From NCBI RefSeq assembly GCF_046533075.1, contig NZ_JAJQRB010000001.1, forward strand, positions 1 to 62,166: DNA of 62,166 nucleotides. Direction: 5' to 3'. The notes under the pieces were generated by a model. It ran no database searches and was not told where the DNA came from. It saw only the letters and a list, made by a program, of their open reading frames with translations. The position numbers and the translations under genes are program-made. Positions 1,144-61,533 of this stretch are shown here, in pieces (position 1 is the stretch's first letter; every line of letters begins with the position of its first letter). Source of the DNA: Treponema primitia. GTDB lineage: Bacteria > Spirochaetota > Spirochaetia > Treponematales > Breznakiellaceae.

Positions 1144-3085
1144 CGAGACCCCGCATTCCCTCCATGTCCGGTTCTTCATACTTCGTTATTTTAACTAAGC
1201 CGTCTTCCAGGATAAAAGTCACCGCACGGTATTCGGTACGGACATCTTCCTTGGCGTCTTTTATCATCACCCGAACTCCGGGATACACCTTTGCGGAGGC
1301 GGAAACCCGTCCCCGGGCCTGAAGGTTGTTTAATAAATCCTGGGCTTTTTCAATATCATCGGTGTTTTTCTTTATATCCGTAATGGTCTCCACCCGTTTT
1401 TCATCCAGTTCCTGGAGATAGGCTTCCTTATCCTCCGGCAGGGACTTACGTTGTTGTTTAATATTGATCAGGGTCTGTATATTCAGCTTGATATCATCAA
1501 ACTGTTTTTCCAGGGTCGCCTTTTTTTCCGCAAGCTGGGAAAGAAGCTCCTTCGTTTTTGGATCCACCCCCACTTCACAGATCGTTTCCGTACCCGCCGT
1601 GGGGCTGCCCAGTATCTTTGCGTTGATCTCTTCGCCCGCCCGCAGCCGGCCTCCCACGATGGTGGCCCGCTTACCCTGGCAGATGATCCGCTTACCGGCG
1701 TCCACCCGGGAATTGATAATGCCATCGGAGGCTATTACCGAATCCCCCGCTTCGATCATCGTATTTTCAATAAACCGGGCCATCAGGGTCTTCCCCGCCC
1801 GGATAATTTCCTTACCCCTTCCGGTAACACCCTGGTGGACAATGATATCACCTTCGGCATCCAGATCCGCCTTTTCCACGGTACCGTTCACTTCGATATT
1901 ACCCGCAGCTTTAACGGAGAAACCATCCACCACGTTACCGGTGATCATCACCGTACCAAGGAAGATGATGTTTCCGGTTTTAAGGTCCACATCACCGTCA
2001 ACGGTGTACACGGGTTCCACATTGATCTTACCGTTGACCTCCACCACCTGTCCGTTCATATCGGCAATGATGGTAACCTTGTCCTCCCCCATATGGACGT
2101 TCTTTCCCAGGGGCAGAACCATGTCCTTACCATCCCTGGCCGGCAGGGGATTCCCCGTAACGGTCCTGCCGGGGGTTCCCTGTTCCGGGGGTATCTTCTT
2201 TGCCAAAGGCTGGGCTTCAAACACGTTCTGGATAAGCTTAAGGTCCTTAAAATCGACCCGTCCGTTGGCCCCTTCCCTGATGTGCACCTTGGACTGGTTC
2301 GTTTCAAAGTTGTACTGTAAATAAGCATCCCGTCCGTTAGTCGGGGGGAGTCCTTCGGCGATCACCACTTTTTGTTTATAAACAGGCTGGTCCGCAAAAT
2401 CCCGCAGATAATCCAAATCAATTCCGAAATAAACCTTGTTGTTCTTCAAAAAAGTCTGATAGGTTTCAATGGAAACATCGCAGCCCCCGGGCCCCGGAGG
2501 CGTTACATAGAGCAGGGCCTTCATGTCCTGCTCCGCGATTTCCACGGTCATGGTCGCGTCGTTGGAGGGTTTGTGCTCAAAGTCTCCAACCCGGATATAT
2601 TCATCACTGGGGTTTTTTATGACCTCGTTTATCACCGTTTGGTCAAAATCCTTTATGCCCCGATCAGCCAGGGCAACCCGCGCCTGGGCAGGGGTAGCTT
2701 TCTTTCCGCGGCCCACGGGAGAAGAAACCTTGATATACACTCCATCATGGCGCAGGTGGACAAAAACATAGCCGTTTTTATCCTCCATCACCGGAACCTC
2801 AAAATCAACGCCGCTATCAAAGGAGTCGTCTTCAGAAGATTTCTCATCCCGGACATAATGCCGGTAGGCCTTGATCTTCCAGTCCTTTTTTCCGGCGCCC
2901 ATAATACCGGTGGAACCCCGTTCGCTTATTTCGTATTCAATCCGTCTGACGGGGAGATTGAGCAGGGTAGCCGCCTGGGCTACCGCTTCTTCCAGGGTCG
3001 GCCCCTGGGCTTCAATGATGCTGATATCTCTGTCCTGATCCAACTGCTCCTTCATAATATGCTGCAGCTGGACAAAATCAACCAT
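1133..3085 (-). CDS. FapA/DUF342-family protein (flagellar-assembly-protein-A-like), beta-helix plus coiled coil
   Basis: 650 aa. Repetitive G-x-V/I beta-helix segments (GNIEVNGTVEKADLDAEGDIIVHQGV...) and a C-terminal coiled coil. Positioned next to fliA as in other flagellar loci. Confidence 0.55.
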   Translation of the reverse strand: MVDFVQLQHIMKEQLDQDRDISIIEAQGPTLEEAVAQAATLLNLPVRRIEYEISERGSTGIMGAGKKDWKIKAYRHYVRDEKSSEDDSFDSGVDFEVPVMEDKNGYVFVHLRHDGVYIKVSSPVGRGKKATPAQARVALADRGIKDFDQTVINEVIKNPSDEYIRVGDFEHKPSNDATMTVEIAEQDMKALLYVTPPGPGGCDVSIETYQTFLKNNKVYFGIDLDYLRDFADQPVYKQKVVIAEGLPPTNGRDAYLQYNFETNQSKVHIREGANGRVDFKDLKLIQNVFEAQPLAKKIPPEQGTPGRTVTGNPLPARDGKDMVLPLGKNVHMGEDKVTIIADMNGQVVEVNGKINVEPVYTVDGDVDLKTGNIIFLGTVMITGNVVDGFSVKAAGNIEVNGTVEKADLDAEGDIIVHQGVTGRGKEIIRAGKTLMARFIENTMIEAGDSVIASDGIINSRVDAGKRIICQGKRATIVGGRLRAGEEINAKILGSPTAGTETICEVGVDPKTKELLSQLAEKKATLEKQFDDIKLNIQTLINIKQQRKSLPEDKEAYLQELDEKRVETITDIKKNTDDIEKAQDLLNNLQARGRVSASAKVYPGVRVMIKDAKEDVRTEYRAVTFILEDGLVKITKYEEPDMEGMRGLDGN

Positions 3086-3921: not shown

Positions 3922-4617
3922 TTATCCCTTATCTTCCCGTTTTAAAATTGTCTGGATGGCGGAAGCCATCTCATGAACATTAAAATCATCACCAAGCCCC
4001 GCCTTTTCCGAAGCGGTCTTGCCCGAACTATCAAAGGACCCCCCGCCCGAAGAGCCGGATCCCCCGCTCCCACCGCCGTCCGCCGGACCGGAAGCGAACG
4101 CCCCGGACATGGCATCAAGATCCGGCAATACATCCACCGAATCAAGGTCCTCAGCGGTGAAATCCAAACCCGTAGGTAAGGCCGGCTGCAAAGGGCTTGG
4201 AGCTCTTTCTAAGCTCCCCTCCCCAGTATATCCGCCTTTGCTATTCTGGTCCAGGGTGTTTCCCGATAAAGAATCTATATTTTCATCCGAATCGCCGGGA
4301 TTTTCCAATATTTCGCCCACCTCGTCCCCGAATCCCCCCTCTCCCAGGGAGATATCCGATCCCTGGTCATCATCACCCCCGATAGAGATATCCACCTGTG
4401 AACCAAGACCGGGTTCCTCAGCAGGGTTATTCAGGAGTTCCGGCAGGTACATGGTTATCGCCCCATAGCCTATGGACGCCAAGACAAAAAAAACAGCGGC
4501 AAAAACAAAGGCCCGAGCCACAAGCAGGGACAAACCTGCCCCGGTGATAATACCCAGCAGCAAGGAGAAGATAAAACCGATACCAGCGGCTATACCGCTT
4601 ATCTTCGGATTAAACAT
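3922..4617 (-). CDS. Hypothetical membrane protein, acidic Gly/Asp/Ser-rich
   Basis: 231 aa with two N-terminal TM helices and a low-complexity acidic tail. Sits between flhG and fliA. Confidence 0.5.
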   Translation of the reverse strand: MFNPKISGIAAGIGFIFSLLLGIITGAGLSLLVARAFVFAAVFFVLASIGYGAITMYLPELLNNPAEEPGLGSQVDISIGGDDDQGSDISLGEGGFGDEVGEILENPGDSDENIDSLSGNTLDQNSKGGYTGEGSLERAPSPLQPALPTGLDFTAEDLDSVDVLPDLDAMSGAFASGPADGGGSGGSGSSGGGSFDSSGKTASEKAGLGDDFNVHEMASAIQTILKREDKG

Positions 4618-6845: not shown

Positions 6846-8960
6846 TTAAACCTTCACCTTTTCTTCACTTTCCACGCTGATTTCTCCAACCGCTTCCACG
6901 GTAACATCGGCTACCAACTCGGGTACTGAAAGCACCACCAGATCCGGCAGTTCCCGTTCCGTGGAGGACTTAACCAGATACCGGGCCGCCTCGGAACAGA
7001 GGACGATGGGGTACCAACCCTGGTCCTGTACCGCAGCCACCGTCCGGGAAAGGGCCTTTATCCAACTAATCCTGGTGGAGGGGTCCATGGCGGACATGAT
7101 ACCCGCGGCGGTTTCCACGGCGCTGTCCAGGATCTTCTGTTCCAGGCTCTGGCTTATGGTGAGTACCCGAAGCACCCGGTCATCGGTGGCGTACTGCAGG
7201 CATATCTGCCGGCTTAAGGCCTGCCGGGCCTTTTCGTTGAGGAACTGCATATTTTTGGCTGCCTTAGCTGCCTGGCCGTAATCCGCCAGGGCTTCCAGAA
7301 TAGCCACCATATTGCGGATAGAGACCTGCTCCCGGAGCAATGCCTGAAGCACCTTTTGAATTTCCCCAAGGCTGAGTGCCTTCTGGGCTTCCTCCACCAC
7401 TGCGGGGTAGCTTTTCTTAAGGGCGTCCAGAATCTCCTGGGTATCCTGACGACCCAGGATCTCCGCGGCATGGCGCTTGATAATATCCGTTAAATGGGTG
7501 GCGATAATCGAGGGAGGATCAACCACGGTATAACCCGCCCGTTCCGCCTCATCCCGTTTATCCTCGCTTACCCAGAGGGCAGGAAGACCGAAGGTGGGGT
7601 CCCGGGTTTTTTCCCCGGGCAGCTCATCCTTCACCCCCCCGGGATTGATACAGAGGTAGTAACCCATGCGTATCTTGCCCCGGCCCACGTCTACACCCTG
7701 GATCTTAAAGCAGTACTCCGAAGGTTCCAGCCGTATATTGTCGATGATCCGTATCCGGGGAATAACCAGCCCCAGGTCCAGCCCGGATTCCCGGCGAATC
7801 CGGTGGACCCGTTCCAGGAGCTCCGCCCCCTTCTCCCGGTCCACCAGGGGGATGAGTCCGTAACCAAGCTCCAGGGACAGGGGGTCCAGGGGCACTATGG
7901 GGGACATATCTTCGCTTTCGGGTTTGGCCTTCTTGGCATCCGCAGTTTTTGCCGCCGCAGTATCCCGCTTGGTCTTCCGCCGACCCAGGCGTACCGCTAA
8001 TACCACCAGGAGGGCGGCCATGGGAATGAGCACGTACCAGGGAAAGCCCGGCAGCAGGGCAAAGCCCCCAAGGACACCGGCGCCTATCCAGTAGATACGG
8101 GCGTCCCGGGAGAACTGTTCCGAAACATCCTCCCCAAAGGTTCCGTTGGAAACCGACCGGGTAACGATGATACCCGTGGCGGTGGAAATGAGCAGGGCAG
8201 GAAACTGGGATAACAGGCCGTCCCCGATGGAGAAGGATATATAGGTACCGATGGCCACCGTGATGGGTTCACCGTGGATCAGGGTTCCGATGACGATGCC
8301 CCCAATGACATTCACCACCGTGATGAGTATGCCCACCTTAACGTTCCCGGAGATAAACTTACTGGAACCGTCCATGGCGCCGTAGAAGTCAACCTCCCGC
8401 TGGAGATCGTTTTTCCGGGCAATGGCCTCTTCCTCGGTGATGGCCTGGGAGTTGTACTCCGCTTCAATGGCCATCTGTTTCCCCGGCAAAGCATCCAGGG
8501 CAAACCGGGCGGCCACTTCCGCGATACGGGTGGCGCCCTTGGTGATAACCACCGCCTGCACCGCGATGATGATGATAAAGATAACAAAGCCCACCACCAG
8601 ACCTTCGGTACCGCCGGAGCCGACCACGAAGGACGAGAAGGCCCGGACCATGCGGCCGTCGAAAGCGGTTCCCCGGGTCAGGATGAGCCGGGTGGAGGAG
8701 ACGTTCAGGGCCAGGCTGAACACGGTTGACACCAACAGTATGGTTGGGAAGATACTGAAGTCCGTAGCCTTCCGGGTATAGAGGACGATAAGGAGGATCA
8801 GCAGGGCCAGAACCAGGTTCATGGCCATCAGGGCGTCCAGGAGTACCGTGGGCAGGGGGATGATCAGCATCATCACCACCGCCACCACCGCCACCGCCAT
8901 GACGAGTTCCGTACTGTTCCCAAAAAAGGTTTTCCGCGCCGTGCCGCTTTGGTCAGACAT
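6846..8960 (-). CDS. flhA: Flagellar export apparatus protein FlhA
   Basis: 704 aa with multi-TM N-terminal domain and a FHIPEP-type cytoplasmic domain (…KRHAAEILGRQDTQEILD…). Confidence 0.92.
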   Translation of the reverse strand: MSDQSGTARKTFFGNSTELVMAVAVVAVVMMLIIPLPTVLLDALMAMNLVLALLILLIVLYTRKATDFSIFPTILLVSTVFSLALNVSSTRLILTRGTAFDGRMVRAFSSFVVGSGGTEGLVVGFVIFIIIIAVQAVVITKGATRIAEVAARFALDALPGKQMAIEAEYNSQAITEEEAIARKNDLQREVDFYGAMDGSSKFISGNVKVGILITVVNVIGGIVIGTLIHGEPITVAIGTYISFSIGDGLLSQFPALLISTATGIIVTRSVSNGTFGEDVSEQFSRDARIYWIGAGVLGGFALLPGFPWYVLIPMAALLVVLAVRLGRRKTKRDTAAAKTADAKKAKPESEDMSPIVPLDPLSLELGYGLIPLVDREKGAELLERVHRIRRESGLDLGLVIPRIRIIDNIRLEPSEYCFKIQGVDVGRGKIRMGYYLCINPGGVKDELPGEKTRDPTFGLPALWVSEDKRDEAERAGYTVVDPPSIIATHLTDIIKRHAAEILGRQDTQEILDALKKSYPAVVEEAQKALSLGEIQKVLQALLREQVSIRNMVAILEALADYGQAAKAAKNMQFLNEKARQALSRQICLQYATDDRVLRVLTISQSLEQKILDSAVETAAGIMSAMDPSTRISWIKALSRTVAAVQDQGWYPIVLCSEAARYLVKSSTERELPDLVVLSVPELVADVTVEAVGEISVESEEKVKV

Positions 8961-8987
8961 TAAAATCTACTCCTTACAGAAGAAGAA

Positions 8988-9120
8988 TATAACCACAGAG
9001 CACACAGAGCTTGCACAGAGGACACAGAGGAAAAGACAGAAAGAAGAATTTTAAAAACCTCTTCCCCTTTCCCCCTCCGTGTCCTCTGTGTTCTTCCCTC
9101 TGCGCCCTCTGTGGTTACTC
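8988..9120. repeat. Palindromic intergenic repeat element R1 (arms AACCACAGAG...CACAGAGGACACAGAGG / CCTCCGTGTCCTCTGTG...CTCTGTGGTTA; purine run - AATTTTAAAAA - pyrimidine run at apex)
   Basis: Imperfect ~45-bp inverted repeat in the flhB-flhA intergenic gap. Same family as the copies at 10325-10437 and 20780-20830. Confidence 0.7.
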
Positions 9121-9138
9121 TTCTCTCCATCGTTTCTC

Positions 9139-10539
9139 CTATGCCCCAAGGCCGGCGTTGCGGCGCCGGTCTTCGTTCAGCCGGTATACGTGGGCTAATA
9201 CATCAGCCACGGCCCGGTAATAGGTTTCCGGTATGACTTCCCCCACCTCGGTCTCAGCATAGAGCGCACGGGCCAGGGGTTTGTTTTCCACCACCGGTAC
9301 ATCGTTGTCCTCGGCTATGCGGCGAATCCGCAGGGCCAGTTCGTCCTCGCCCTTGGCGCTTACCATGGGGCCGTCCATCCCCGGCTTGTATTCCAGGGCC
9401 ACCGCAAAGTGGGTCGGGTTGGCGATAACCACATCCGCCTGGGGAACCGTAATAGCAATATTCCGGGTCATCAGTTCACGCATTCTTTGCCGCAGCCGGG
9501 ACTTGATCATCGGGTCCCCTTCGTACATCTTCCGTTCTTCCTTCACTTCCTGCTTGGACATCTTTAAGGATTCCCGGTACTGCCAGCGCTGGAAAAGCAT
9601 ATCCGGTATGGAAAGGAGGAGCAGCAGTAACGCTGAGATGATAAGCATCCTGATGGCCAGGGACGCTACGGTGGTCACCCCTAACCAGAGCCTGGCGGTT
9701 TGGAGATTCGCCAGTTGTTTGATCTCCGAACGGATTAGGAAGAAGGCCACGGCGCCGATGATAGCCATCTTAACGATGGACTTAGCGATATTGAAAAGCC
9801 CTTCCATAGAGAAGAGGGTTTTCTGAAAGTAACGGCCCAGCCGGGGCACTACCTTGGAAAAGTCCGGGGTCAGGGGCTTGGTGGTAAAGAGGAAACCGGT
9901 CTGCACCACATTGGAAAAAATCCCCGCCGCCATGGCCACCAGCACGATGGGCAGGGCCAGCCGGGTCAGGTAGTTAAAGAAGGCCACCGCCACCACCCGA
10001 TCCTTTATGGGGTCCAGCTCGGAGGCCCGGAGAAAGTAGAAACGCAGCATTTCTACGCAAGTCCTGAGCATAGAGGGGGCCAGGAAAAAAATAGTAAGCG
10101 CCGGCAGGAGCAGGACCAATGCGCCGATAAGCTCCTGGCTCTTGGCAACCCGCCCCTCCTCCCGGGCCTTCTGTATCTTATACTCGGTGGGTTCTTCAGT
10201 ACGCCCCTCATCCTCCGCGGCGAACCACTGCAGGTCTATTTTGGAAGGAATATCGTTGTTTGCGGACTTTTTTCGTTCGCCATTTCCTTGAAAAAAATCA
10301 AAAATATAATCAGAGAAATCAAAAGAATAACCACAGAGGACACGGAGGGAAGAACACAGAGGAAGAGGAGGAAGAGAAGAAGAAGAAAAATTTATATCTT
10401 CCCTCTGTGTCCTCTGTGAAAGCGAACCGAAGGTTCGATCTCTGTGTTCTCTGCGGTTATTCTTCATTTCTCTGCGGTTATTCTTCATTTCTCTGTGGTT
10501 ATTCTTCATTCCTCTGCGGTTATTCTTCATTCCTATCAT
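9139..10539 (-). CDS. flhB: Flagellar export apparatus protein FlhB (annotated start overlaps fliR stop, ATGA; N-terminal ~95 aa encoded by repeat DNA)
   Basis: Conserved IDLQWFAAEDEGRTEEPTEYKIQKAREEGRVAKS... and NPTH autocleavage motif (VIANPTHFAVAL). The 5' 240 nt consist of a dispersed palindromic repeat plus four 21-bp tandem units. Confidence 0.85.
   Translation of the reverse strand: MIGMKNNRRGMKNNHREMKNNRREMKNNRREHRDRTFGSLSQRTQREDINFSSSSLPPLPLCSSLRVLCGYSFDFSDYIFDFFQGNGERKKSANNDIPSKIDLQWFAAEDEGRTEEPTEYKIQKAREEGRVAKSQELIGALVLLLPALTIFFLAPSMLRTCVEMLRFYFLRASELDPIKDRVVAVAFFNYLTRLALPIVLVAMAAGIFSNVVQTGFLFTTKPLTPDFSKVVPRLGRYFQKTLFSMEGLFNIAKSIVKMAIIGAVAFFLIRSEIKQLANLQTARLWLGVTTVASLAIRMLIISALLLLLLSIPDMLFQRWQYRESLKMSKQEVKEERKMYEGDPMIKSRLRQRMRELMTRNIAITVPQADVVIANPTHFAVALEYKPGMDGPMVSAKGEDELALRIRRIAEDNDVPVVENKPLARALYAETEVGEVIPETYYRAVADVLAHVYRLNEDRRRNAGLGA
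10325..10437. repeat. Palindromic repeat element R2 (AACCACAGAGGACACGGAGGGAAGAACACAGAGG ... GAAGAAAAATTTATATCTTCCCTCTGTGTCCTCTGTG) plus CGAACCGAAGGTTCG mini-palindrome
   Basis: Same family as R1 and R3. Lies inside the 5' end of the flhB ORF, in frame and without stop codons. Confidence 0.7.
10449..10532. repeat. 4 x 21-bp tandem repeat (CTCTGCGGTTATTCTTCATTT), translated on the minus strand as (MKNNRRE)x4 at the annotated FlhB N-terminus
   Basis: Four near-identical 21-bp units read directly. The unit resembles the terminus of the R1 repeat (CTCTGTGGTTACTCTTC). Confidence 0.8.
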
Positions 10540-11354
10540 GACCCGCCCCCGATCTGTGTCCCAATCTGCATGTACAGGGACTCGATGTTTTGGAAACCCA
10601 TGTCCACTACCCGGGCGAAGGCTTCGGTCATGAAGGGCATGGTGGCCATGATGAGGACGAAGGCTACGGTGATTGATATGGGGAAACCTTCGGTAAGGAT
10701 ATTGATCTGCGGGGCCGCCTTGGAGATGAGCCCCGTGGACAGTGAGGTAAGGAAGAGGGTCCCCAGTATGGGCATACTGATCACGATGGCGTCCATAAAC
10801 ACCCCGGTAAGCCCGTTCAGGAGGGTTTCTATCACCGCTTCATGGCCCATAACCAGAGAATAGGCGCTGATCGACTGGATGGAACGCCAGAACCCGCCCA
10901 GGAACAGTTCGGAAAAGCCGCCTATGGAAAGGAATACCAGCATGGCCACCAGGTTCAGGTATTGACCCATTAGGGGGTTTTCTATTTGAGCAAGGGGGTC
11001 GAAGGTTTCAGAGGCGCCGAAGCCCATCTGGAGGGAGAAGAACTGACCCGCCGTGGAGAAGGCGGAGAAGATCAGGGTAAGGTAGAACCCGATGATGATC
11101 CCCACGATGGCCTCCCCAATGAGGAGAAACACAAAGTACAGACCGAAGGGCGCAAGATTCCAGCCCGCAGCAAGGGCGGTGGGAAAGGCGGTAAAGGCGG
11201 CAAACCCCGCCAGGGCAATCTTGGCAATCTGGGGTATGCCGTCCGAAGACAGTAACGGTGCAGTTTCGATCATCGCCAGAGCCCGGACGGCAATCAGGAG
11301 AAACGCCGGTGCACCGGCTAAAATTTCGTTAAGGAACTGCGCCTCAATCACCAA
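10536..11354 (-). CDS. fliR: Flagellar export apparatus protein FliR
   Basis: 272-aa polytopic membrane protein. Position and sequence are typical of FliR. Confidence 0.85.
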   Translation of the reverse strand: MVIEAQFLNEILAGAPAFLLIAVRALAMIETAPLLSSDGIPQIAKIALAGFAAFTAFPTALAAGWNLAPFGLYFVFLLIGEAIVGIIIGFYLTLIFSAFSTAGQFFSLQMGFGASETFDPLAQIENPLMGQYLNLVAMLVFLSIGGFSELFLGGFWRSIQSISAYSLVMGHEAVIETLLNGLTGVFMDAIVISMPILGTLFLTSLSTGLISKAAPQINILTEGFPISITVAFVLIMATMPFMTEAFARVVDMGFQNIESLYMQIGTQIGGGS

Positions 11355-20055: not shown

Positions 20056-20673
20056 CTAGTCTCTGAGGGAGGGTCTCCCCGCCATCTTACGCTGCAGCTC
20101 CGCCGCCCGTTCTGGGGGCATGAGTGACAGCCAGTAGGATACGATAGAAGCGCTTCCTTCAGCCTGGGCAATCTCTTCGGTCTTCCGGAGTACGTCGATG
20201 GCATCCTGATCGTTCATGTTGGTTATTATGCCCACCGCTCGCTCCGGAGGCATACCATTCAAATAACGCGCATTCTGCTCAACGTTCCTGGATCTAATGT
20301 CGGCGTCTTCCACCATGGCATTGAAGGAATTCTCCCGTTCATCCAAAGCTTTTTGCCGTTCCTCCAGGTCCTGGGCCATTTGTTCTATTTGATCCTGCCG
20401 GGAAACCAGTTCCTCTTCCTTCTGTTCTATCTCCATATTACGCAATTCCAGGGCTTCCAGCCGTATGGCCAGCCGTTCCGCATCCAGGGAAAGGAACTCC
20501 TCCTCCCCGGTTTCCGTCTGGGAGCGGGGCTGCAGGCCGATAAGGCGGTACACCGGGGCCAAAATCGTCTTGGCGTCGATAACATTGAGGTAATCAAACC
20601 ATACCAAGCCGCCGCCTGCTAAAATGGCGATGAGCAGCAATAAAAGAAAAACCCTGCCTAAAACTCTCCCCAC
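20056..20673 (-). CDS. FlbB-like flagellar protein (TM anchor, coiled coil, MgtE_N-like C-terminus); GTG start
   Basis: 205 aa. First gene of the operon. Start is GTG at 20673, with an AGAGGAGTGAGG RBS-like tract upstream. Confidence 0.5.
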   Translation of the reverse strand: MGRVLGRVFLLLLLIAILAGGGLVWFDYLNVIDAKTILAPVYRLIGLQPRSQTETGEEEFLSLDAERLAIRLEALELRNMEIEQKEEELVSRQDQIEQMAQDLEERQKALDERENSFNAMVEDADIRSRNVEQNARYLNGMPPERAVGIITNMNDQDAIDVLRKTEEIAQAEGSASIVSYWLSLMPPERAAELQRKMAGRPSLRD

Positions 20674-20779: not shown

Positions 20780-20830
20780 AACTCTGTGTTCTCTGTGTTC
20801 TTCCCTCCGTGTCCTCCGTGGTTAATTTTC
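20780..20830. repeat. Half-copy of the palindromic repeat family, R3 (CTCTGTGTTCTCTGTGTTCTTCCCTCCGTGTCCTCCGTGGTTAAT)
   Basis: Matches the right arm of R1 (9070-9117). Lies in the divergent promoter region between the flagellar operon and the epimerase gene. Confidence 0.65.
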
Positions 20831-20923
20831 TATGCGTTTATCCTGACACTTCCCGGGATTACATGGACTTTTTTCACTATTATCCCTATACTTCCTATCG
20901 GTAATTAACGAAAGGAGAACAGT

Positions 20924-21958
20924 ATGAAAGTATTATTTATCGGTGGGACCGGGACCATCAGTACCGCCATTTCGCGGCAGCTTTGCGACATGATGTCGCA
21001 CGAACAGGGGCATGAACTGTATCTGCTTAACCGGGGAACCCGCAACGATGTGCTCCCCAAGGCGGTGCAGGAGATACGCGGGGATATCAACAACGAGGCG
21101 GATATCGCTGAAAAAATTAAGGGGCATCAATTTGACGTGGTGGCGGATTTTATCGCCTTTACCGCCGCCCATGCGGAGCGGGATTACCGGCTCTTTAAAG
21201 ATAAAACCAGACAATACTTGTGTTTCAGTTCCGCATCGGCTTACCAGAAGCCGCTGCAAAACTACCTGATCACCGAAAGTACCCCCCTGGCAAATCCCTA
21301 CTGGCAGTATTCCCGGGATAAAATTGCGCTGGAAGATTTTCTTATCAAAAAAAACCGGGAAGAAGCCTACCCTATCACCATAGTTCGCCCCAGCCACACC
21401 TACGATGAACGGAAGATACCCCTGGGGGTCCACGGCAAAAAAGGCAGCTGGCAGGTAGCCAAACGCATCCTGGAGGGTAAGCCGGTTATCATCCACGGTG
21501 ATGGGACCAGTCTCTGGACCATGACCCACAACAGCGACTTTGCCCGGGGCTTCATCGGGCTTATGGGTAACGCCCACGCCATTGGGGAGGCCGTGGGGAT
21601 TACCTCCGACGAGACGGTGACCTGGAACCAGGTGTACGCTGCCATCGCCGCGGCCCTGGACCGGCCGCTCAAGGCGGTTCACGTGTCCAGCGAATTCCTC
21701 GCCGCAGTGAGCGATTATGATTTTACCGGGGGGCTCATCGGGGATAAGGCAAACTCCGTGGTCTTCGACAATACCAAGCTTAAACGGCTGGTTCCCGGCT
21801 TTAGCGCCACGGTCCGTTTCGATCAGGGTATACGGAAGACCGTCGAATATGTGCTGGCCCATAAGGAATTGCAGGAAGAGGACCCGGAATTCGATGCATG
21901 GTGCGATAGGGTTATTGCGGCCCAGGATAAGGCAGCAGCGGAAGTGTTGAAAAAATAA
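20924..21958 (+). CDS. NAD-dependent epimerase/dehydratase family protein
   Basis: N-terminal Rossmann GxxGxxG (MKVLFIGGTGTISTAI). AAGGAG RBS 8 nt upstream. Confidence 0.8.
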   Translation: MKVLFIGGTGTISTAISRQLCDMMSHEQGHELYLLNRGTRNDVLPKAVQEIRGDINNEADIAEKIKGHQFDVVADFIAFTAAHAERDYRLFKDKTRQYLCFSSASAYQKPLQNYLITESTPLANPYWQYSRDKIALEDFLIKKNREEAYPITIVRPSHTYDERKIPLGVHGKKGSWQVAKRILEGKPVIIHGDGTSLWTMTHNSDFARGFIGLMGNAHAIGEAVGITSDETVTWNQVYAAIAAALDRPLKAVHVSSEFLAAVSDYDFTGGLIGDKANSVVFDNTKLKRLVPGFSATVRFDQGIRKTVEYVLAHKELQEEDPEFDAWCDRVIAAQDKAAAEVLKK

Positions 21959-30586: not shown

Positions 30587-30668
30587 GCGGCCATGGTGGA
30601 ACTGGTAGACACGCCAGCTTGAGGTGCTGGTGCCGAGAGGTATGGAAGTTCGAGTCTTCTTGGCCGCA
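30587..30668 (+). tRNA. tRNA-Leu (anticodon GAG), long variable arm; CCA not encoded
   Basis: Acceptor stem GCGGCCA/TGGCCGC. Anticodon stem CCAGC/GCTGG with loop TTGAGGT, a long variable arm, and T-arm GGAAGTTCGAGTCTTCT. Confidence 0.85.
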
Positions 30669-30675
30669 ACGAATG

Positions 30676-30702
30676 CCCCGCTGAAAAGCGGGGTTTTTGT
30701 TT
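30676..30702 (+). terminator. Rho-independent terminator after tRNA-Leu (CCCCGC-tgaaaa-GCGGGG-TTTTT)
   Basis: Perfect 6-bp GC stem followed by a T-tract. Confidence 0.75.
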
Positions 30703-30710
30703 GAACCGTT

Positions 30711-30730
30711 CCAAGAAGACTCGAACTTCC
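30711..30730. repeat. Inverted copy of the tRNA-Leu T-arm (CCAAGAAGACTCGAACTTCC)
   Basis: Exact reverse complement of 30645-30664. Confidence 0.8.
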
Positions 30731-30824
30731 GGAGGGCGCGCCGAGTGAATACGAGGAAAAGCGCGCATGGATGCGCGCGTCAGCGCCCGGAGCTGGCCCG
30801 GAAGCCGAGAACAGGATGTTCGAT

Positions 30825-30888
30825 GCTGGAGGGTTCGAGTCTTCTTGGCCGCAACGAATGCCCCGCCTATTTGGCGGGGTTTTTTTAT
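30825..30888 (+). repeat. Direct duplicate of the tRNA-Leu 3' half plus a variant terminator (attL/attR-like remnant)
   Basis: GCTGGAGGGTTCGAGTCTTCTTGGCCGCAACGAATGCCCCGCC-tattt-GGCGGGG-TTTTTTT. The variable arm is deleted relative to the intact tRNA. Confidence 0.8.
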
Positions 30889-52251: not shown

Positions 52252-53889
52252 TTATTGTATATTGATATAGTACCGTTCCAGATATGCAATTTGCCGGCGG
52301 GAATCATTGTACCGGCTGCTCTGGGGGTACTCATTTACCAGACGGCGATAGTAGTCCAGGGCTAAACGGATATTCCGGGAAGGCCCCTGTTTTTCGTAAA
52401 GTTGTGCGTAGAGCCAGAGCGCTTCGTCGCTGCCCCGGGGAAACTGCGCCATAAACTGATTCAGTACGGCAATGGCCTGGGGAACATGATCCGCCCCAAA
52501 TTCTTCCCGAGCCCTGCGCAGGTACTCTTCGGCGCCGGCGCCCGGGGGAAGGATCAGCGGTGGCTCAAGCTCCGCAGTTTCGTTTACAGCCGCAGACGGC
52601 ACGGCGGGAACAGACCCCGGCGAAACCACTGCAGGAGCGGCACTACCGGGAACAACGGCAGCCGGCACGACAGGAACAGCCCCCGGCGAAACCACTGCGG
52701 GAGCGGCCCTGCCGGGAACAACGGCAGACGGCACGACAGGAACAACCCCGGGTGAAACCACTGCGGGAGCGGCCCTGCCGGGAACAACGGCAGACGGCGC
52801 GGCGGGAACAGACCCGGGCGAAACCACTGCGGGAGCGGCCTTACCCGGCACGACGGCTGGCGGTACGGCTTCTGATGCAGGGAGCGGCTCTCCGGGAATG
52901 GTGGGCCAGCGGGGTTCGGCAATCACCCTACCCCGGTCTGCCGGAGCGCCGAAGCTGAGCGAGGCCAGGGGCGCCTCTTCGACAATAACGCTTACCAAAT
53001 CGTTGATGATATAATCCCGGATAAAATCCTGGCGGTAGAATTTGAGTTCATAGGTCCCGGCTTCGGCGGCCAGGAAAACAAAGGTCTGACCTTCGGAATC
53101 CAGGCGCCGGGAATTGTAGTTTATACCCCGCTTGGAGGCGGATTCCCCCAGATAGACCCAGCCGGTTCCCCGGAACGGAACCTCCAGGGTTTGCCCGGTC
53201 ACGGCCCGGACGATCCGGGAAGAAACGCCTTGAGGAATCGCCGGAATAGGCGCCGGCGTGAAGGTCGGAGGATTCCGGGCGGGGGGATCAGGGATGGGGT
53301 TTACCGGAAGCGGTATGGGTTCCCTGACACGGGGAGGCGGCGGTATGGGTTCCGTGGGCCTGACGATACGCGGCGGCGGAGGCGGAATAACCGGTTCCGG
53401 CGGCGGCGGTTCGGGCGGGACGGCAAGCTCAGACTGGGCAGTCTCCTCCGGCAAGGTCCCTTCCAGTGAAGACTCTTCCGGCGGGGACTCTTCCGCCAGG
53501 ACCAGCGCCGGCGCAAGGGACGGCAGATCCGGGGCAAGCGGCTCGGGAAGGGGTTCCGCCAGAACTATGGCGCTTTCCCCGGGGGGCGGATCAGGAAGGA
53601 AGACCTCGCCGAATTCTAAAAACGGCTCATCCAACTCAGCCGGCCAGCCTTCGGAGGGGGCGCCGGGGGGGGGTAAGGCCAGGGACGGATCATCATCCTC
53701 TACCTGGGACCAGTCATAATCCACATCCCCGTTGTCGTCATAATCCCCGTAATCTTCATAGTCTTCATCGTCCTCATAGGGTTCCTCTTCCGGAGGGGTC
53801 ATATTCACCTTGGGGAGGCCCTTACAGGACCAGGACAGGAGGCAACAGATTATCAGTCCCAGGGGAAAAAGGTGTTTTACGGGGTTCAC
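52252..53889 (-). CDS. Proline-rich secreted protein with internal 22-aa tandem repeats and a C-terminal TPR-like helical domain
   Basis: Signal peptide and acidic DYEDY run. Four copies of AVVPG(R/K)AAPAVVSPG(S/V)VP(A/V)VPS. Helical C-terminus. Confidence 0.55.
   Translation of the reverse strand: MNPVKHLFPLGLIICCLLSWSCKGLPKVNMTPPEEEPYEDDEDYEDYGDYDDNGDVDYDWSQVEDDDPSLALPPPGAPSEGWPAELDEPFLEFGEVFLPDPPPGESAIVLAEPLPEPLAPDLPSLAPALVLAEESPPEESSLEGTLPEETAQSELAVPPEPPPPEPVIPPPPPRIVRPTEPIPPPPRVREPIPLPVNPIPDPPARNPPTFTPAPIPAIPQGVSSRIVRAVTGQTLEVPFRGTGWVYLGESASKRGINYNSRRLDSEGQTFVFLAAEAGTYELKFYRQDFIRDYIINDLVSVIVEEAPLASLSFGAPADRGRVIAEPRWPTIPGEPLPASEAVPPAVVPGKAAPAVVSPGSVPAAPSAVVPGRAAPAVVSPGVVPVVPSAVVPGRAAPAVVSPGAVPVVPAAVVPGSAAPAVVSPGSVPAVPSAAVNETAELEPPLILPPGAGAEEYLRRAREEFGADHVPQAIAVLNQFMAQFPRGSDEALWLYAQLYEKQGPSRNIRLALDYYRRLVNEYPQSSRYNDSRRQIAYLERYYINIQ
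52590..52860. repeat. 4 x ~66-bp tandem repeat inside the Pro-rich protein gene
   Basis: Near-identical units GGAACAG(A/C)CCCCGGCGAAACCACTGC(A/G)GGAGCGGC(A/C)CT(A/G)CCGGGAACAACGGCAG(C/A)CGGCACGACA. Confidence 0.75.
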
Positions 53890-54314: not shown

Positions 54315-54560
54315 AGTATCATTCTAATAGAAAGCTGCTTTTCCGGCTACTGTACGGATAATCTTCTTTCTGTTATATTATACATATAATGGATATAGTG
54401 ATTAACCCCCGGGGTAATGGCGCCTGTCCACTTTGCGACCAGAACAGCATTTGCCGTATTCAGGGTACCCTCTTCAAAGCCATGGAAGAATTTTCCGCCA
54501 AGGACGATCCCATGGAAGTGGTGGTTTATTCCTGTCCCCAATTCCAGGAGAAACTCTAAG

Positions 54561-55646
54561 GTGAACGAACGTCTTGAATCACTGCTGCGGCGGTATGATG
54601 AACTATCGGGCCTAATCCAGGACCCTGAACTGGTGAAGGATCAGAAAAAATACCGCGATACCATGAGGGAATATTCCCAACTGGATACCATTGCCGGGAC
54701 TCAGAAGGAAATCGAAGAAATTTCCGCCCAGCTTGCGGACGCCAAAACCCTGATCCAGGATGAAAAGGATCCGGATATGCGGGAAATGGCCAAGGAAGAA
54801 AGCCGGGAACTGGAAACCCATCTCAAGGATGCGGAGGATCGCCTCAAATTTCTGCTGATCCCCAAAGACCCCCTGGACGAAAAGAATATCATCATGGAAA
54901 TCCGGGCGGGTACCGGCGGCGACGAGGCGGCCCTCTTTGCGTCGGACCTCTACCGCATGTATTCCCGGTTTGCGGAAACCAAGAGCTGGAAGTTTGAAAT
55001 CATGAGCTCCAACGAAACCGAGCTTGGGGGCTTTAAGGAAATCGTTTTTTCCATCAGCGGTAATAATGTGTACGAAAATCTCCGCTACGAGTCGGGGGTA
55101 CACCGTGTTCAGCGGGTCCCCGCCACCGAAGCTTCGGGCCGTATCCACACCTCCGCAGTAACCGTGGCGGTGCTCCCCGAAGCGGACGAGACCGAAATCG
55201 ACATACGTACCGAAGACCTCCGTATCGACGTGATGCGTGCCGGCGGTCCCGGGGGCCAGTGCGTCAACACCACCGATTCTGCGGTACGGATCACCCATAT
55301 CCCCTCCGGGGTGGTGGTCCAATGTCAGGATGAAAAGAGCCAGATTAAAAACAAGGCCAAAGCCATGCGTGTACTCCGGGCACGGATCTACGAAATGGAG
55401 GAAGCCAAAGCCGCCGCCTCCCGTTCGGAGGCCCGGAAAAACCAAGTCGGCTCAGGGGACCGCTCCGAGCGGATCCGTACCTACAACTTCCCCCAGAACC
55501 GACTTACGGATCATCGTATCAACCTTACCCTCTATAAACTGGACCTTATCATGCAGGGCGATGTGGAAGAACTCTTCGACGCCCTCAAACTTTCCGCCCG
55601 GGAAGAATTACTCCAAACCACAGCATCGGTAACCGCCGCTTCTTAA
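54561..55646 (+). CDS. prfA: Peptide chain release factor 1 (GTG start)
   Basis: GGQ motif ([21 protein letters not shown]) and PxT-type recognition region. GTG at 54561, 10 nt downstream of AGGAG. The longer 409-aa ORF is probably an upstream overextension. Confidence 0.9.
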
Positions 55647-55671
55647 TATGTATAAGATCCGGGGGGAAAGT

Positions 55672-55792
55672 AAAAGACCGCAAAGGCGCAGAAGGCGAAT
55701 AAGGATGATGAAAAAAAGAAGAAATAGAGAGAAGAAAAATTTCCTCTCCCTCCCCTCCCCTTCTTCGACTTCTGTGCCTTTGCGGTTACCCA
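55672..55792. repeat. Palindromic intergenic element R4 (arms ACCGCAAAGGCGCAGAAGGCGAATAAGG / CTTCTTCGACTTCTGTGCCTTTGCGGTTACC; purine run - AAAAATTT - pyrimidine run apex)
   Basis: Same architecture as R1/R2 with related arms. Inserted between prfA and prmC. Confidence 0.65.
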
Positions 55793-55805
55793 ATTCCTTT
55801 GTCTT

Positions 55806-56660
55806 ATGACTATACGGGAAGTCCTTACCCAGGGAACGGCGCGGCTCAGAAAAGCAGGAATCGACAATCCCGGTTTAGACGCCGCACTATTCCTGGCTTT
55901 CATCCTTAAAACGAACAGGGAAAAACTTATACTCCGGGATGCCGAAGCGTTACACGAAGACGGCGCTGAGGATTTTGCCGGCCTCCTGGACCGCCGCATT
56001 GCCGGGGAATGTACCGCCTATATCCTGGGCCGTAAGGAATTCCGCGGCCTGGACCTTATCGTCACCCCCGATGTCCTCGTTCCCCGGCCGGACACAGAAA
56101 CCCTGGTGGAAGCGGCCCTGACCATCGGTACGGATCAGGAACTGACCGCACTGGATCTCTGTACCGGTTCCGGGGCGGTAGCCATAGCCTTGAAACACGA
56201 ACTACCCTCCTTGGAAGTCTACGCTTCGGATATCTCAGCAAAGGCCCTGGCCGTGGCCCGGGAAAACGCCCGGCGGCTTTTGGGGAGCGATGGGGCGGTA
56301 CATTTTCTCCAAGGGGACCTCTTCTCGCCGGTTCCGGAGATCCGTTTCTCCCTCATCACCGCCAACCCTCCCTATGTGGCTTCCGGGGAAATCGCCGCCC
56401 TTGCCCGGGAAGTCCGGGGGGAACCGCTTTTGGCGCTGGACGGGGGGAAAGACGGGCTGGACCTGGTGCGGAGGATCATAGACGGGGCGCGCTCGTACCT
56501 GCTGCCCGGGGGGAGGCTCCTTATGGAAGCGGACCCTAGACAAATGGCGGGAATTAGCCTAATACTGGAAAAAAAGGGATACCGGGATATCAGAACCTAT
56601 CAGGATCTGTCCGGGCAGGATCGGGTTATAGATGGAATCGCTGGTTGCGACGTTCAGTAA
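55806..56660 (+). CDS. prmC: Release factor glutamine N5-methyltransferase PrmC (HemK)
   Basis: SAM-binding motif (LDLCTGSGAVAIAL) and catalytic NPPY (ITANPPYV). Confidence 0.88.
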   Translation: MTIREVLTQGTARLRKAGIDNPGLDAALFLAFILKTNREKLILRDAEALHEDGAEDFAGLLDRRIAGECTAYILGRKEFRGLDLIVTPDVLVPRPDTETLVEAALTIGTDQELTALDLCTGSGAVAIALKHELPSLEVYASDISAKALAVARENARRLLGSDGAVHFLQGDLFSPVPEIRFSLITANPPYVASGEIAALAREVRGEPLLALDGGKDGLDLVRRIIDGARSYLLPGGRLLMEADPRQMAGISLILEKKGYRDIRTYQDLSGQDRVIDGIAGCDVQ

Positions 56661-61266: not shown

Positions 61267-61330
61267 CCGCCCCGTTTAGCGCAAGTAAGCGCGGGCGAGG
61301 GAAGCAGGGTTAAATAGATCCTTACGAACA

Positions 61331-61464
61331 GGCGCCGGTGGGGGAGGGGGAGCCGCGCTGCGGGATATTCTGGAATTCCCTGCTGGAGGAGACCTACTGG
61401 GCTCCGCAAGCAGACTCTACAGGCATCCCGCAGCGTGGCTCCCCCTCCCCCACCGGCGTTTTTT
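61331..61464 (+). terminator. Very long inverted repeat (35-bp arms, 58-nt spacer) followed by T6; candidate terminator or structured element
   Basis: GGCGCCGGTGGGGGAGGGGGAGCCGCGCTGCGGGA…TCCCGCAGCGTGGCTCCCCCTCCCCCACCGGCG TTTTTT, with a single G/A mismatch. Confidence 0.55.
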
Positions 61465-61533
61465 CGAATGACCTGTATACCCCACCCTACTAACTCCACC
61501 ATCAGGCGCCGGATTTGCCATCTATTTATCGAA

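Follow-up and report, generated by a model that had tools for sequence, protein, structure and literature searches.

The gene flhB, which codes for a protein of the flagellar export machinery, is located in a stretch of 62,166 nucleotides (nt) of DNA from Treponema primitia (NCBI RefSeq assembly GCF_046533075.1, contig NZ_JAJQRB010000001.1, positions 1 to 62,166 of the forward strand), which is called the window in the following. At its 5' end, flhB overlaps a palindromic repeat, which lies between the start codon and the codons for the conserved core of the protein. As judged from the sequence, FlhB of this organism very probably carries a non-conserved N-terminal tail of about 100 residues, derived from the in-frame reading of the inserted palindrome. 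What the sequences show directly is how the repeat is built, how open the frame is in comparison to other frames and to shuffled sequences, that the coupled start codon is conserved, and which related genomes have or lack the insertion.

The flhB Gene and Its Coupled Start Codon

In the window, a flagellar export operon was identified on the minus strand with the gene order fliP, fliQ, fliR, flhB and flhA. The order fliR-flhB-flhA is intact, and the same order is present in the related loci L001 and L002. fliR is located at 10536-11354 (Pfam Bac_export_1, E = 1.2e-52), flhB at 9139-10539 as the longest open reading frame (ORF) with 466 amino acids (Pfam Bac_export_2, E = 7.4e-116), and flhA, the next gene of the operon, at 6846-8960 (Pfam FHIPEP, E = 2.7e-247), all on the minus strand. 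For FlhB, the match to Bac_export_2 (PF01312) comprises residues 112-451 and positions 2-335 of the profile's 335, and the translation contains the NPTH autocleavage motif. The full-length profile match, the NPTH motif and the place between fliR and flhA identify the protein as a member of the FlhB/YscU/SpaS family. The conserved core of FlhB, IDLQWFAAEDEGRTEE, begins at I101 (ATA, 10237-10239).

The proposed start codon of flhB is the ATG at 10537-10539 on the minus strand. It shares bases with the TGA stop codon of fliR (10536-10538), and the resulting ATGA at 10536-10539, which the original prediction had pointed out, is an overlap of the kind involved in translational coupling. Directly upstream of the flhB ATG, the final codons of fliR (atc ggg ggc ggg tca) form a G-rich stretch resembling a Shine-Dalgarno (SD) sequence, at the place where relatives have GGAGG. 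Upstream of the core, canonical in-frame start codons are present at distances of 231, 252, 273, 294 and 303 nt. In the leader of the window, no ATG, GTG or TTG was found in the flhB frame at less than 231 nt from the core, and no missed codon came to light on re-inspection, as had been claimed beforehand. A promoter scan revealed no promoter-like sites, and terminator-like matches were no more numerous than in shuffled sequences.

The start of flhB was compared in 80 loci, with one genome per GTDB species, which were picked solely by similarity of the FlhB core. In each of them, the positions of the fliR stop and of the core were determined, and 65 loci were resolvable. The orthologues mostly have 366-385 amino acids, with 0-25 residues preceding the motif (I/M)DLQWF. 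In 58 of the 65 resolvable loci, an ATG, GTG or TTG overlaps the fliR stop (NTGA), is in frame and is followed by a stop-free stretch up to the core (binomial P = 9e-21 versus the one third expected for frame alone). The NTGA start is also present in L001, L002, L003 and L085. The coupled start is therefore the conserved flhB start of the clade. DLQWF is preceded by Ile or Leu in 31 and by Met in 27 of the 58 loci, and the residues other than Met in the former show that no closer start exists there at this position.

In the relatives, the leader between the coupled start and the core has a length of 4-230 codons, with a median of 27, and its sequence is not conserved. The leader of the window, with 101 codons, is the second-longest. 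A search with the 100-amino-acid leader alone gave no protein homologues. On the basis of this sequence comparison, the leader is considered a length-variable, dispensable segment. The original prediction had described a repeat-encoded extension as unusual for an export-gate protein, which was overstated for this clade, since an unconserved leader of 4-230 codons is the norm in the clade and FlhB tolerates N-terminal additions.

Duplications of other types were observed in several leaders. In L026 (about positions 2840-3003), the first codons of the core itself are duplicated in about 4.5 copies of 33 nt (VMDLQCTSGTI). The leader of L014 contains a tandem duplication of the core start of 2 x 36 nt (2 x 12 amino acids), and the leader of 230 codons in L025 contains a different duplicated sequence. 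All three leaders are in frame with the coupled start.

Anatomy of the Leader

The 5' end of the leader is formed by a tandem array of 4 x 21 bp, which had been placed at 10449-10532 beforehand. Tandem Repeats Finder (TRF) located it at 10447-10531 on the minus strand, with a period of 21 bp, 4.0 copies and 95% matches; the repeat families D1 and D2 and the inverted pairs I2, I5, I8, I10 and I11 match it to the other arm. On the minus strand, the units read ATGAAGAATAACCGCAGAGGA, ATGAAGAATAACCACAGAGAA, ATGAAGAATAACCGCAGAGAA and ATGAAGAATAACCGCAGAGAA. They encode, in this order, MKNNRRG, MKNNHRE, MKNNRRE and MKNNRRE, with one in-frame ATG per unit. As the original prediction had missed, this unit of 21 bp represents the element's terminal inverted repeat, which is present four times on the 5' arm (the fliR side) and twice on the 3' arm (the core side). 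The latter copies form a degenerate 2 x 21-bp tandem at 10295-10337 on the minus strand (TRF; D6, I2, I5), which is the reverse complement of the unit and encodes CGYSFDF and SDYIFDF. The identity of 95-100% among the units of the array indicates a recent amplification, for which slippage or unequal recombination would be the likely route.

Between the terminal repeats, an inner palindrome was identified at 10332-10418 on the minus strand, both as the inverted pair I7 and in the RNA fold. Its heptad arms, CACAGAGGACACGGAGGGAAGA (10332-10353) and TCTTCCCTCTGTGTCCTCTGTG (10397-10418), have a length of 22 nt and are 95% complementary, and the loop between them is purine/pyrimidine-rich and AT-rich. 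A wider inverted pair connects 10306-10347 with 10440-10481, and the outer arms extend to AAGAATAACCACAGAG and CTCTGTGGTTATTCTT. Within the 5' arm, at 10421-10441 on the minus strand, the alignment revealed a small internal hairpin, GATCGAACCTTCGGTTCGC, which is common to the insertion in L001. The leader ends at 10240-10294 (minus strand) with a non-repeat segment, FFQGNGERKKSANNDIPSK, which is partly common to L001 (NNVIPFK). With these inverted arms, and with three sites in the window as described below, the claim of a palindromic and dispersed repeat was substantiated.

For the RNA of the leader, a folding energy of -97 kcal/mol was calculated (z = -5.8). The first half of the encoded leader, derived from the purine-rich arm, is basic, and in the second half, derived from the pyrimidine-rich arm, Ser, Leu, Pro, Cys and Phe are abundant. 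In an AlphaFold2 (AF2) model of the flhB ORF, the core is folded normally, while residues 40-114 are modelled as unstructured, with a predicted local distance difference test (pLDDT) score below 50. The (MKNNRRE)4 array, residues 3-41, is modelled as one long helix with a pLDDT of 67-87, which may reflect only the periodicity of the repeat.

The Open Frame through the Repeat

The frame of flhB is free of stop codons over 303 nt (101 codons), counted from the ATG up to the codon that precedes GAC (D102), which agrees with the reading of the leader as a stop-free segment in the original prediction. Each of the other two forward frames contains seven stops over the same 303 nt. A stop-free leader frame was obtained in 0.26% of dinucleotide shuffles and in 0.38% of shuffles in which the arms were preserved.

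Palindromes built from CACAGAG heptads were also identified at the fliR-flhB junction of L001 (protein P0003), L002 (P0007), L003 (P0001), L023 and L049. In L084 (P0006), the junction contains a palindrome of GCAAAGG heptads, and the contig begins inside the element. In every one of these repeat-bearing relatives, the flhB frame that begins at the coupled start is open. The claim of a repeat-encoded N-terminal extension thus fits the coupled start in the 58 of 65 loci as well as the in-frame state of all junction repeats. The register in which the heptads are read differs: it gives TQR in the window, L001, L023 and L049, and TTEDTE in L002 and L003. From the different registers and the differing sequences, at least four insertion events can be deduced, with separate groups represented by L001, by L002 and L003, by L023 and L049, and by L084. 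The window and L001, with cores of only 81% identity, have homologous insertions, between which four indels were found. Their lengths of 12, 12, 15 and 18 nt are each divisible by three, which is a pattern that would fit a coding frame.

Among relatives, the presence of the repeat in flhB was found to vary. The closest relatives by core identity, L085 (P0002; 92.9%) and L004 (93% in a tblastn segment), have an empty site. In the searches made, the core identity of other sequences did not exceed 93%, and the exact FlhB protein of the window was not on record. In L085, the empty site reads ggatcATGAgcgcccgctgtgatgatgatttcctgATCGACCTG, which gives MSARCDDDFLIDLQWF; in L085 and L004, the ATGA is followed by a leader of 10-11 codons. 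The empty site in the closest relatives shows that the insertion is lineage-specific and that the function of FlhB does not require it.

Several points weigh against a translated leader. An antisense frame, r2, is likewise open across the leader region and the arms of the element are intrinsically stop-poor, so that the openness is partly compositional. The hairpin of -97 kcal/mol in the first 300 nt of the ORF could hinder ribosomes or attract RNase III, and a strong hairpin downstream would then be awkward for the use of an upstream start codon. The copy number of four in the array could be an assembly estimate. L001, L002 and L003 were first noticed by long ORFs of the gene caller, which introduces an ascertainment bias; L023, L049 and the count of 58 of 65 loci are free of it.

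Proposed Origin of the N-Terminal Tail

For the origin of the long FlhB, it is proposed that a composite palindrome with a length of about 250 bp, which is one of the copies of a dispersed hairpin element with CACAGAG heptads, was inserted into a short, unconserved leader between the coupled start and the core. Its terminal 21 bp, in which an ATG was present by chance, would later have been amplified to four copies on the 5' arm and two on the 3' arm by slippage or unequal recombination. Translation would begin at the coupled ATG (10537-10539) or at any of the four ATG codons that the array contains in frame, and ribosomes would read through the element in frame, resulting in an N-terminal tail that is cytoplasmic and comprises about 100 residues. 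Since the insertion has a start only on its upstream side and flagella cannot be assembled without FlhB, out-of-frame or stop-bearing variants would be removed by selection. This selection against frameshifts and stops would explain why only in-frame, stop-free insertions are seen. A change in the number of 21-bp copies would alter the length of the protein in steps of seven residues and would keep the frame.

We infer that the tail is translated and retained and that it is functionally neutral; most likely, it is a tolerated passenger, with a probably small effect on motility. A long addition at this end is plausible for FlhB from what is known of its structure and of its fusions. In structures from Salmonella and Vibrio, the N-terminus of FlhB is cytoplasmic, and residues 1-28 are not resolved in the FliPQR-FlhB complex (PMC7064499). 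Fusions of FliR and FlhB occur naturally in Clostridium, and a fusion engineered in Salmonella weakly complements the double knockout (PMC7064499). The long form of FlhB predicts the existence of peptides such as TFGSLSQR and VLCGYSFDFSDYIFDFFQGNGER.

The example implies that a gene for an essential membrane machine can absorb selfish hairpin DNA, and that the surviving insertions become new protein sequence. With the coupled start upstream of a dispensable leader, only in-frame and stop-free insertions survive. For annotation, it follows that gene callers which give flhB of termite-gut treponemes a long ORF are probably correct, and trimming them to a guessed internal start is unwarranted.

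Alternative Explanations

It is conceivable that the insertion has a function, with the hairpin, the heptad tail or both tuning the level or activity of FlhB by RNase III processing, translational attenuation, length variation between strains or frameshift switching at the T7 and A6 runs, but this was judged to be unlikely. Elements with very stable hairpins are present on both sides of flhB, the near-identical 21-bp units indicate an ongoing amplification, and the junction has been hit repeatedly by insertions. In Campylobacter, flagellar genes are subject to phase variation at homopolymers. However, the nearest relatives lack the insertion and some leaders have only four codons, the leader is unconserved and without protein homologues, the 21-nt unit cannot switch the frame, and T7 and A6 are short for efficient switching. 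The original prediction had considered a variation of the array copy number leading to phase or length variation. The change in length is possible, while an on/off switch is not to be expected, since the unit of 21 nt corresponds to seven codons and a change in copy number cannot switch flhB off.

The second possibility, already named in the original prediction, is that the repeat is an untranslated spacer and FlhB is initiated at a non-canonical codon by the core, for which ATT (10249-10251), ATA (10237-10239) and CTG (10231-10233) are available. The ATA is located at the position of the Met of MDLQWF in 27 of the 58 relatives, and the nearest canonical start is 231 nt away. However, such a start would leave unexplained the stop-free 303 nt in exactly the flhB frame (p of about 0.003), the in-frame state of all other repeat-bearing relatives and the multiple-of-three indels between the window and L001; these indels of 12, 12, 15 and 18 nt are of coding type and extend upstream of the proposed codons. 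Only one SD-like sequence is available, AAGGAA at 10285-10290, and its distance of more than 30 nt to the ATT or the ATA is not workable. A coupled in-frame start is present in all 31 relatives whose residue at the ATA position is Ile or Leu. Initiation at a non-canonical codon is therefore very improbable.

The leader also contains an out-of-frame ATG at 10281-10283, not noted in the original prediction, which could be the true start of flhB if a -1 ribosomal or transcriptional slip occurred on the A6 run at 10268-10273, or if a sequencing error conceals a true A7. Runs resembling A-AAA-AAG are classic slippery sites. The predicted product, MANEKKSANNDIPSKIDLQWF, would have a leader of typical length with about 14 residues, and L001 has an ATG at the homologous place. 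However, the ATG of L001 needs a +1 and not a -1 shift and lacks a slippery run, a corresponding out-of-frame ATG is absent from L002 and L003, and the AGGA at a distance of 1 nt from the ATG in the window is too close to serve as an SD sequence. A true A7 would moreover reduce the long open frame upstream to a coincidence (p of about 0.003), so that only a very small chance can be given to this start. A programmed frameshift was rejected, because neither the slippery site nor the frame relation is conserved (+1 in L001 versus -1 in the window, and no ATG in L002 and L003). A T7 run is present at 10293-10299, near the out-of-frame ATG, and a slip of one base would result in a leader of normal length or in a truncated long ORF.

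That contigs were mis-joined or collapsed at the repeat and the junction is unreal is hardly credible, although metagenome contigs of relatives often break at such repeats and L084 starts inside one, since the gene order is intact, the frame is kept, the array of 84 bp is shorter than a sequencing read, and L001 independently has the same element at the same place.

Comparison to Known Systems

The in-frame insertion of a palindrome into a protein gene, with a tail of FlhB as the probable result, adds a further case to a phenomenon that is already known, the tolerance of selfish repeats inside genes, and is not a new mechanism. Rickettsia palindromic elements (RPEs) are summarised in PMC10969869, citing Ogata et al. 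2000, as dispersed palindromes of about 100-150 bp that are located in frame in protein genes and are translated, while the protein survives. For the flhB element, a similar in-frame palindromic insertion is tolerated in a host protein, and the sites vary by presence or absence among relatives. The likeness is only functional, since the CACAGAG heptads belong to an unrelated sequence family and are found in a different phylum, Spirochaetota. In addition, the insertion in flhB is located in the extreme N-terminal leader, whereas RPEs are present in surface loops of enzymes, and the terminal repeat of the flhB element has been tandemly amplified, in contrast to RPEs.

[quoted passage not shown] The hairpin repeat in flhB is likewise fused in frame with the host ORF. 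However, it has no known transposase partner, its target-site duplication is only tentative, and no Rfam family exists for it.

With the FliR-FlhB fusions, which show that FlhB can carry a large N-terminal addition, the window shares the adjacent, tightly coupled genes fliR and flhB. In contrast to the fusions, the two proteins are separate here (ATGA, different frames), and the addition consists of low-complexity repeat sequence and not of FliR. The array resembles contingency loci in that a flagellar gene has near-identical tandem copies at its 5' end and these are susceptible to slipped-strand mispairing, but a unit of 21 nt, being a multiple of three, never loses the frame, and only the length can vary.

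The Dispersed CACAGAG-Heptad Element

For the heptad pattern CACAGAGGACACAGAGG, nine matches were identified in the window versus 0.08 expected. They cluster at three sites, namely 8994-9113, 10332-10455 and 20781-20820. The second of these belongs to the flhB leader. The first belongs to a second full copy of the palindrome at 8961-9138 on the minus strand, between flhB and flhA, with a fold z of -10.4, which is spanned by an ORF at 8960-9130. The third belongs to a half copy at 20782-20831, which consists of four heptads and one arm only; it is located outside any ORF in the spacer of the divergent genes 20056-20673 (minus strand) and 20924-21958 (plus strand). Copies of the element are also present in L001, L002, L003, L023, L049 and many metagenome contigs.

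Both the fliR-flhB and the flhB-flhA junction are filled in the window and empty in L085, L004 and L005. Hairpin-capable inverted arms, dispersed copies and filled and empty orthologous sites were thus found, as is characteristic of MITE-like elements. A possible target-site duplication, TA(A)GGAG, flanks the flhB-flhA copy in comparison to the empty site of L085 and is tentative; at the fliR-flhB junction, none is evident. No transposase was identified, and the ORFs beside metagenomic copies share no recurrent family. In Rfam, no family was found for the element, and only sub-threshold matches to miRNA-precursor hairpins were obtained. In the literature searched, no bacterial description of the repeat sequence was found; the string occurred only in an unrelated vertebrate developmental-biology paper.

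Among the matches listed in a metagenome scan with AACCACAGAGGACAC, most came from unrelated environments, and similar heptad palindromes were widespread. Palindromes of the type AACC + (CACAGAGNN)x3 were observed in metagenome contigs that have a GC content of 36-73% and come from many environments, in head-to-head and tail-to-tail orientation (L099, L105, L112, L132, L154, L170, L188, L129, L165, L184, L136, L152 and L168). Variants exist in which the heptad is changed (CGCGGAG, CACAAGG) and the architecture is kept, and L152 contains nested copies. No description of the AACC-heptad palindromes was found in the literature searched. The heptad-built palindromes are apparently members of an undescribed, widespread family.

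In L168, palindromes flank a small gene of the GxxExxY type. That the element is linked to cargo genes of the GxxExxY or four-helix-bundle type was considered and discarded, since such a link was seen only in L168 and no recurrent family is present beside other copies. A literature search for GxxExxY gave nothing relevant.

In a wider sample, most copies of the heptad family were intergenic, and a given frame was open across the element in about one of three cases. For elements between co-directional genes, as assigned by crude context calls, 16 of 51 sense frames versus 20 of 51 antisense frames were open. There is thus no excess of open frames on the sense strand, which shows that translatability is not a property of the family.

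Bridge ORFs over Palindromes between Co-Directional Genes

Both complete palindromes located between co-directional genes in the window are spanned by a small ORF, reaching from the upstream stop to the downstream start. For the flhB-flhA palindrome, this is the ORF at 8960-9130 (minus strand, 56 codons, MERRVTTEGAEGRTQ...), with p = 0.015 in arm-preserving shuffles. Preceded by AGGAG, its start is located 8 nt past the stop of flhB, and its end overlaps the start of flhA as TAATG. The comparison to the empty site of L085 suggests that this AGGAG may have arisen from the duplicated TA(A)GGAG, which is the SD sequence of flhA.

The other palindrome is located at 55677-55786 on the plus strand, between prfA (54417-55646) and prmC (55806-56660). 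It is built from a different heptad of the ACCGCAAAGG type and contains ACCGCAAAGGCGCAGAAGG. The ORF at 55648-55809 (plus strand, 53 codons) starts 1 nt past the prfA stop and overlaps prmC in ATGA; its p value in arm-preserving shuffles is 0.024, and two antisense frames are open, too. In L002, the flhB-flhA gap of 225 nt (4326-4552) contains a GC-rich palindrome of another type and is spanned by an ORF of 79 codons, which shares bases with the stop of flhB (GTGATG) and extends 8 nt into flhA. At the flhB-flhA junction, a bridge ORF was found in three of about 22 relatives with a long gap, with uncertain flhA starts in most of them.

The tail of FlhB gives rise to the idea that translation through such elements protects the expression of an operon. 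As a tentative generalisation, to which a low probability is assigned, the leader of flhB might be a recurrent safe landing pad, palindromes inside tightly coupled operons of these treponemes might survive only if they are translated through, either by fusion or by a bridge ORF, and the CACAGAG/AACC-heptad family from metagenomes of 36-73% GC might be an undescribed widespread mobile element. If this were true, bridge ORFs and in-frame fusions would keep translational coupling and prevent hairpin-induced polarity. Since no sense-strand excess was found in the wider crude test, the idea of bridge ORFs stays a local observation.

Other Repeats in the Window

Three further repeats were observed in the window. 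Within the ORF at 52252-53889 on the minus strand, a 66-bp repeat is present in frame in five tandem copies at 52586-52915. It encodes a Pro/Val/Ala-rich repeat of 22 residues (AVVPGRAAPAVVSPG...) in a protein of 545 amino acids resembling a lipoprotein. At 61325-61466, a GC-rich inverted repeat of 42 nt was identified, with 90% complementarity and a loop of 58 nt. At 30648-30886, a segment of 54 nt is duplicated, which comprises the 3' end of tRNA-Leu(GAG) (30587-30668) and a terminator-like hairpin and is repeated 185 nt downstream.

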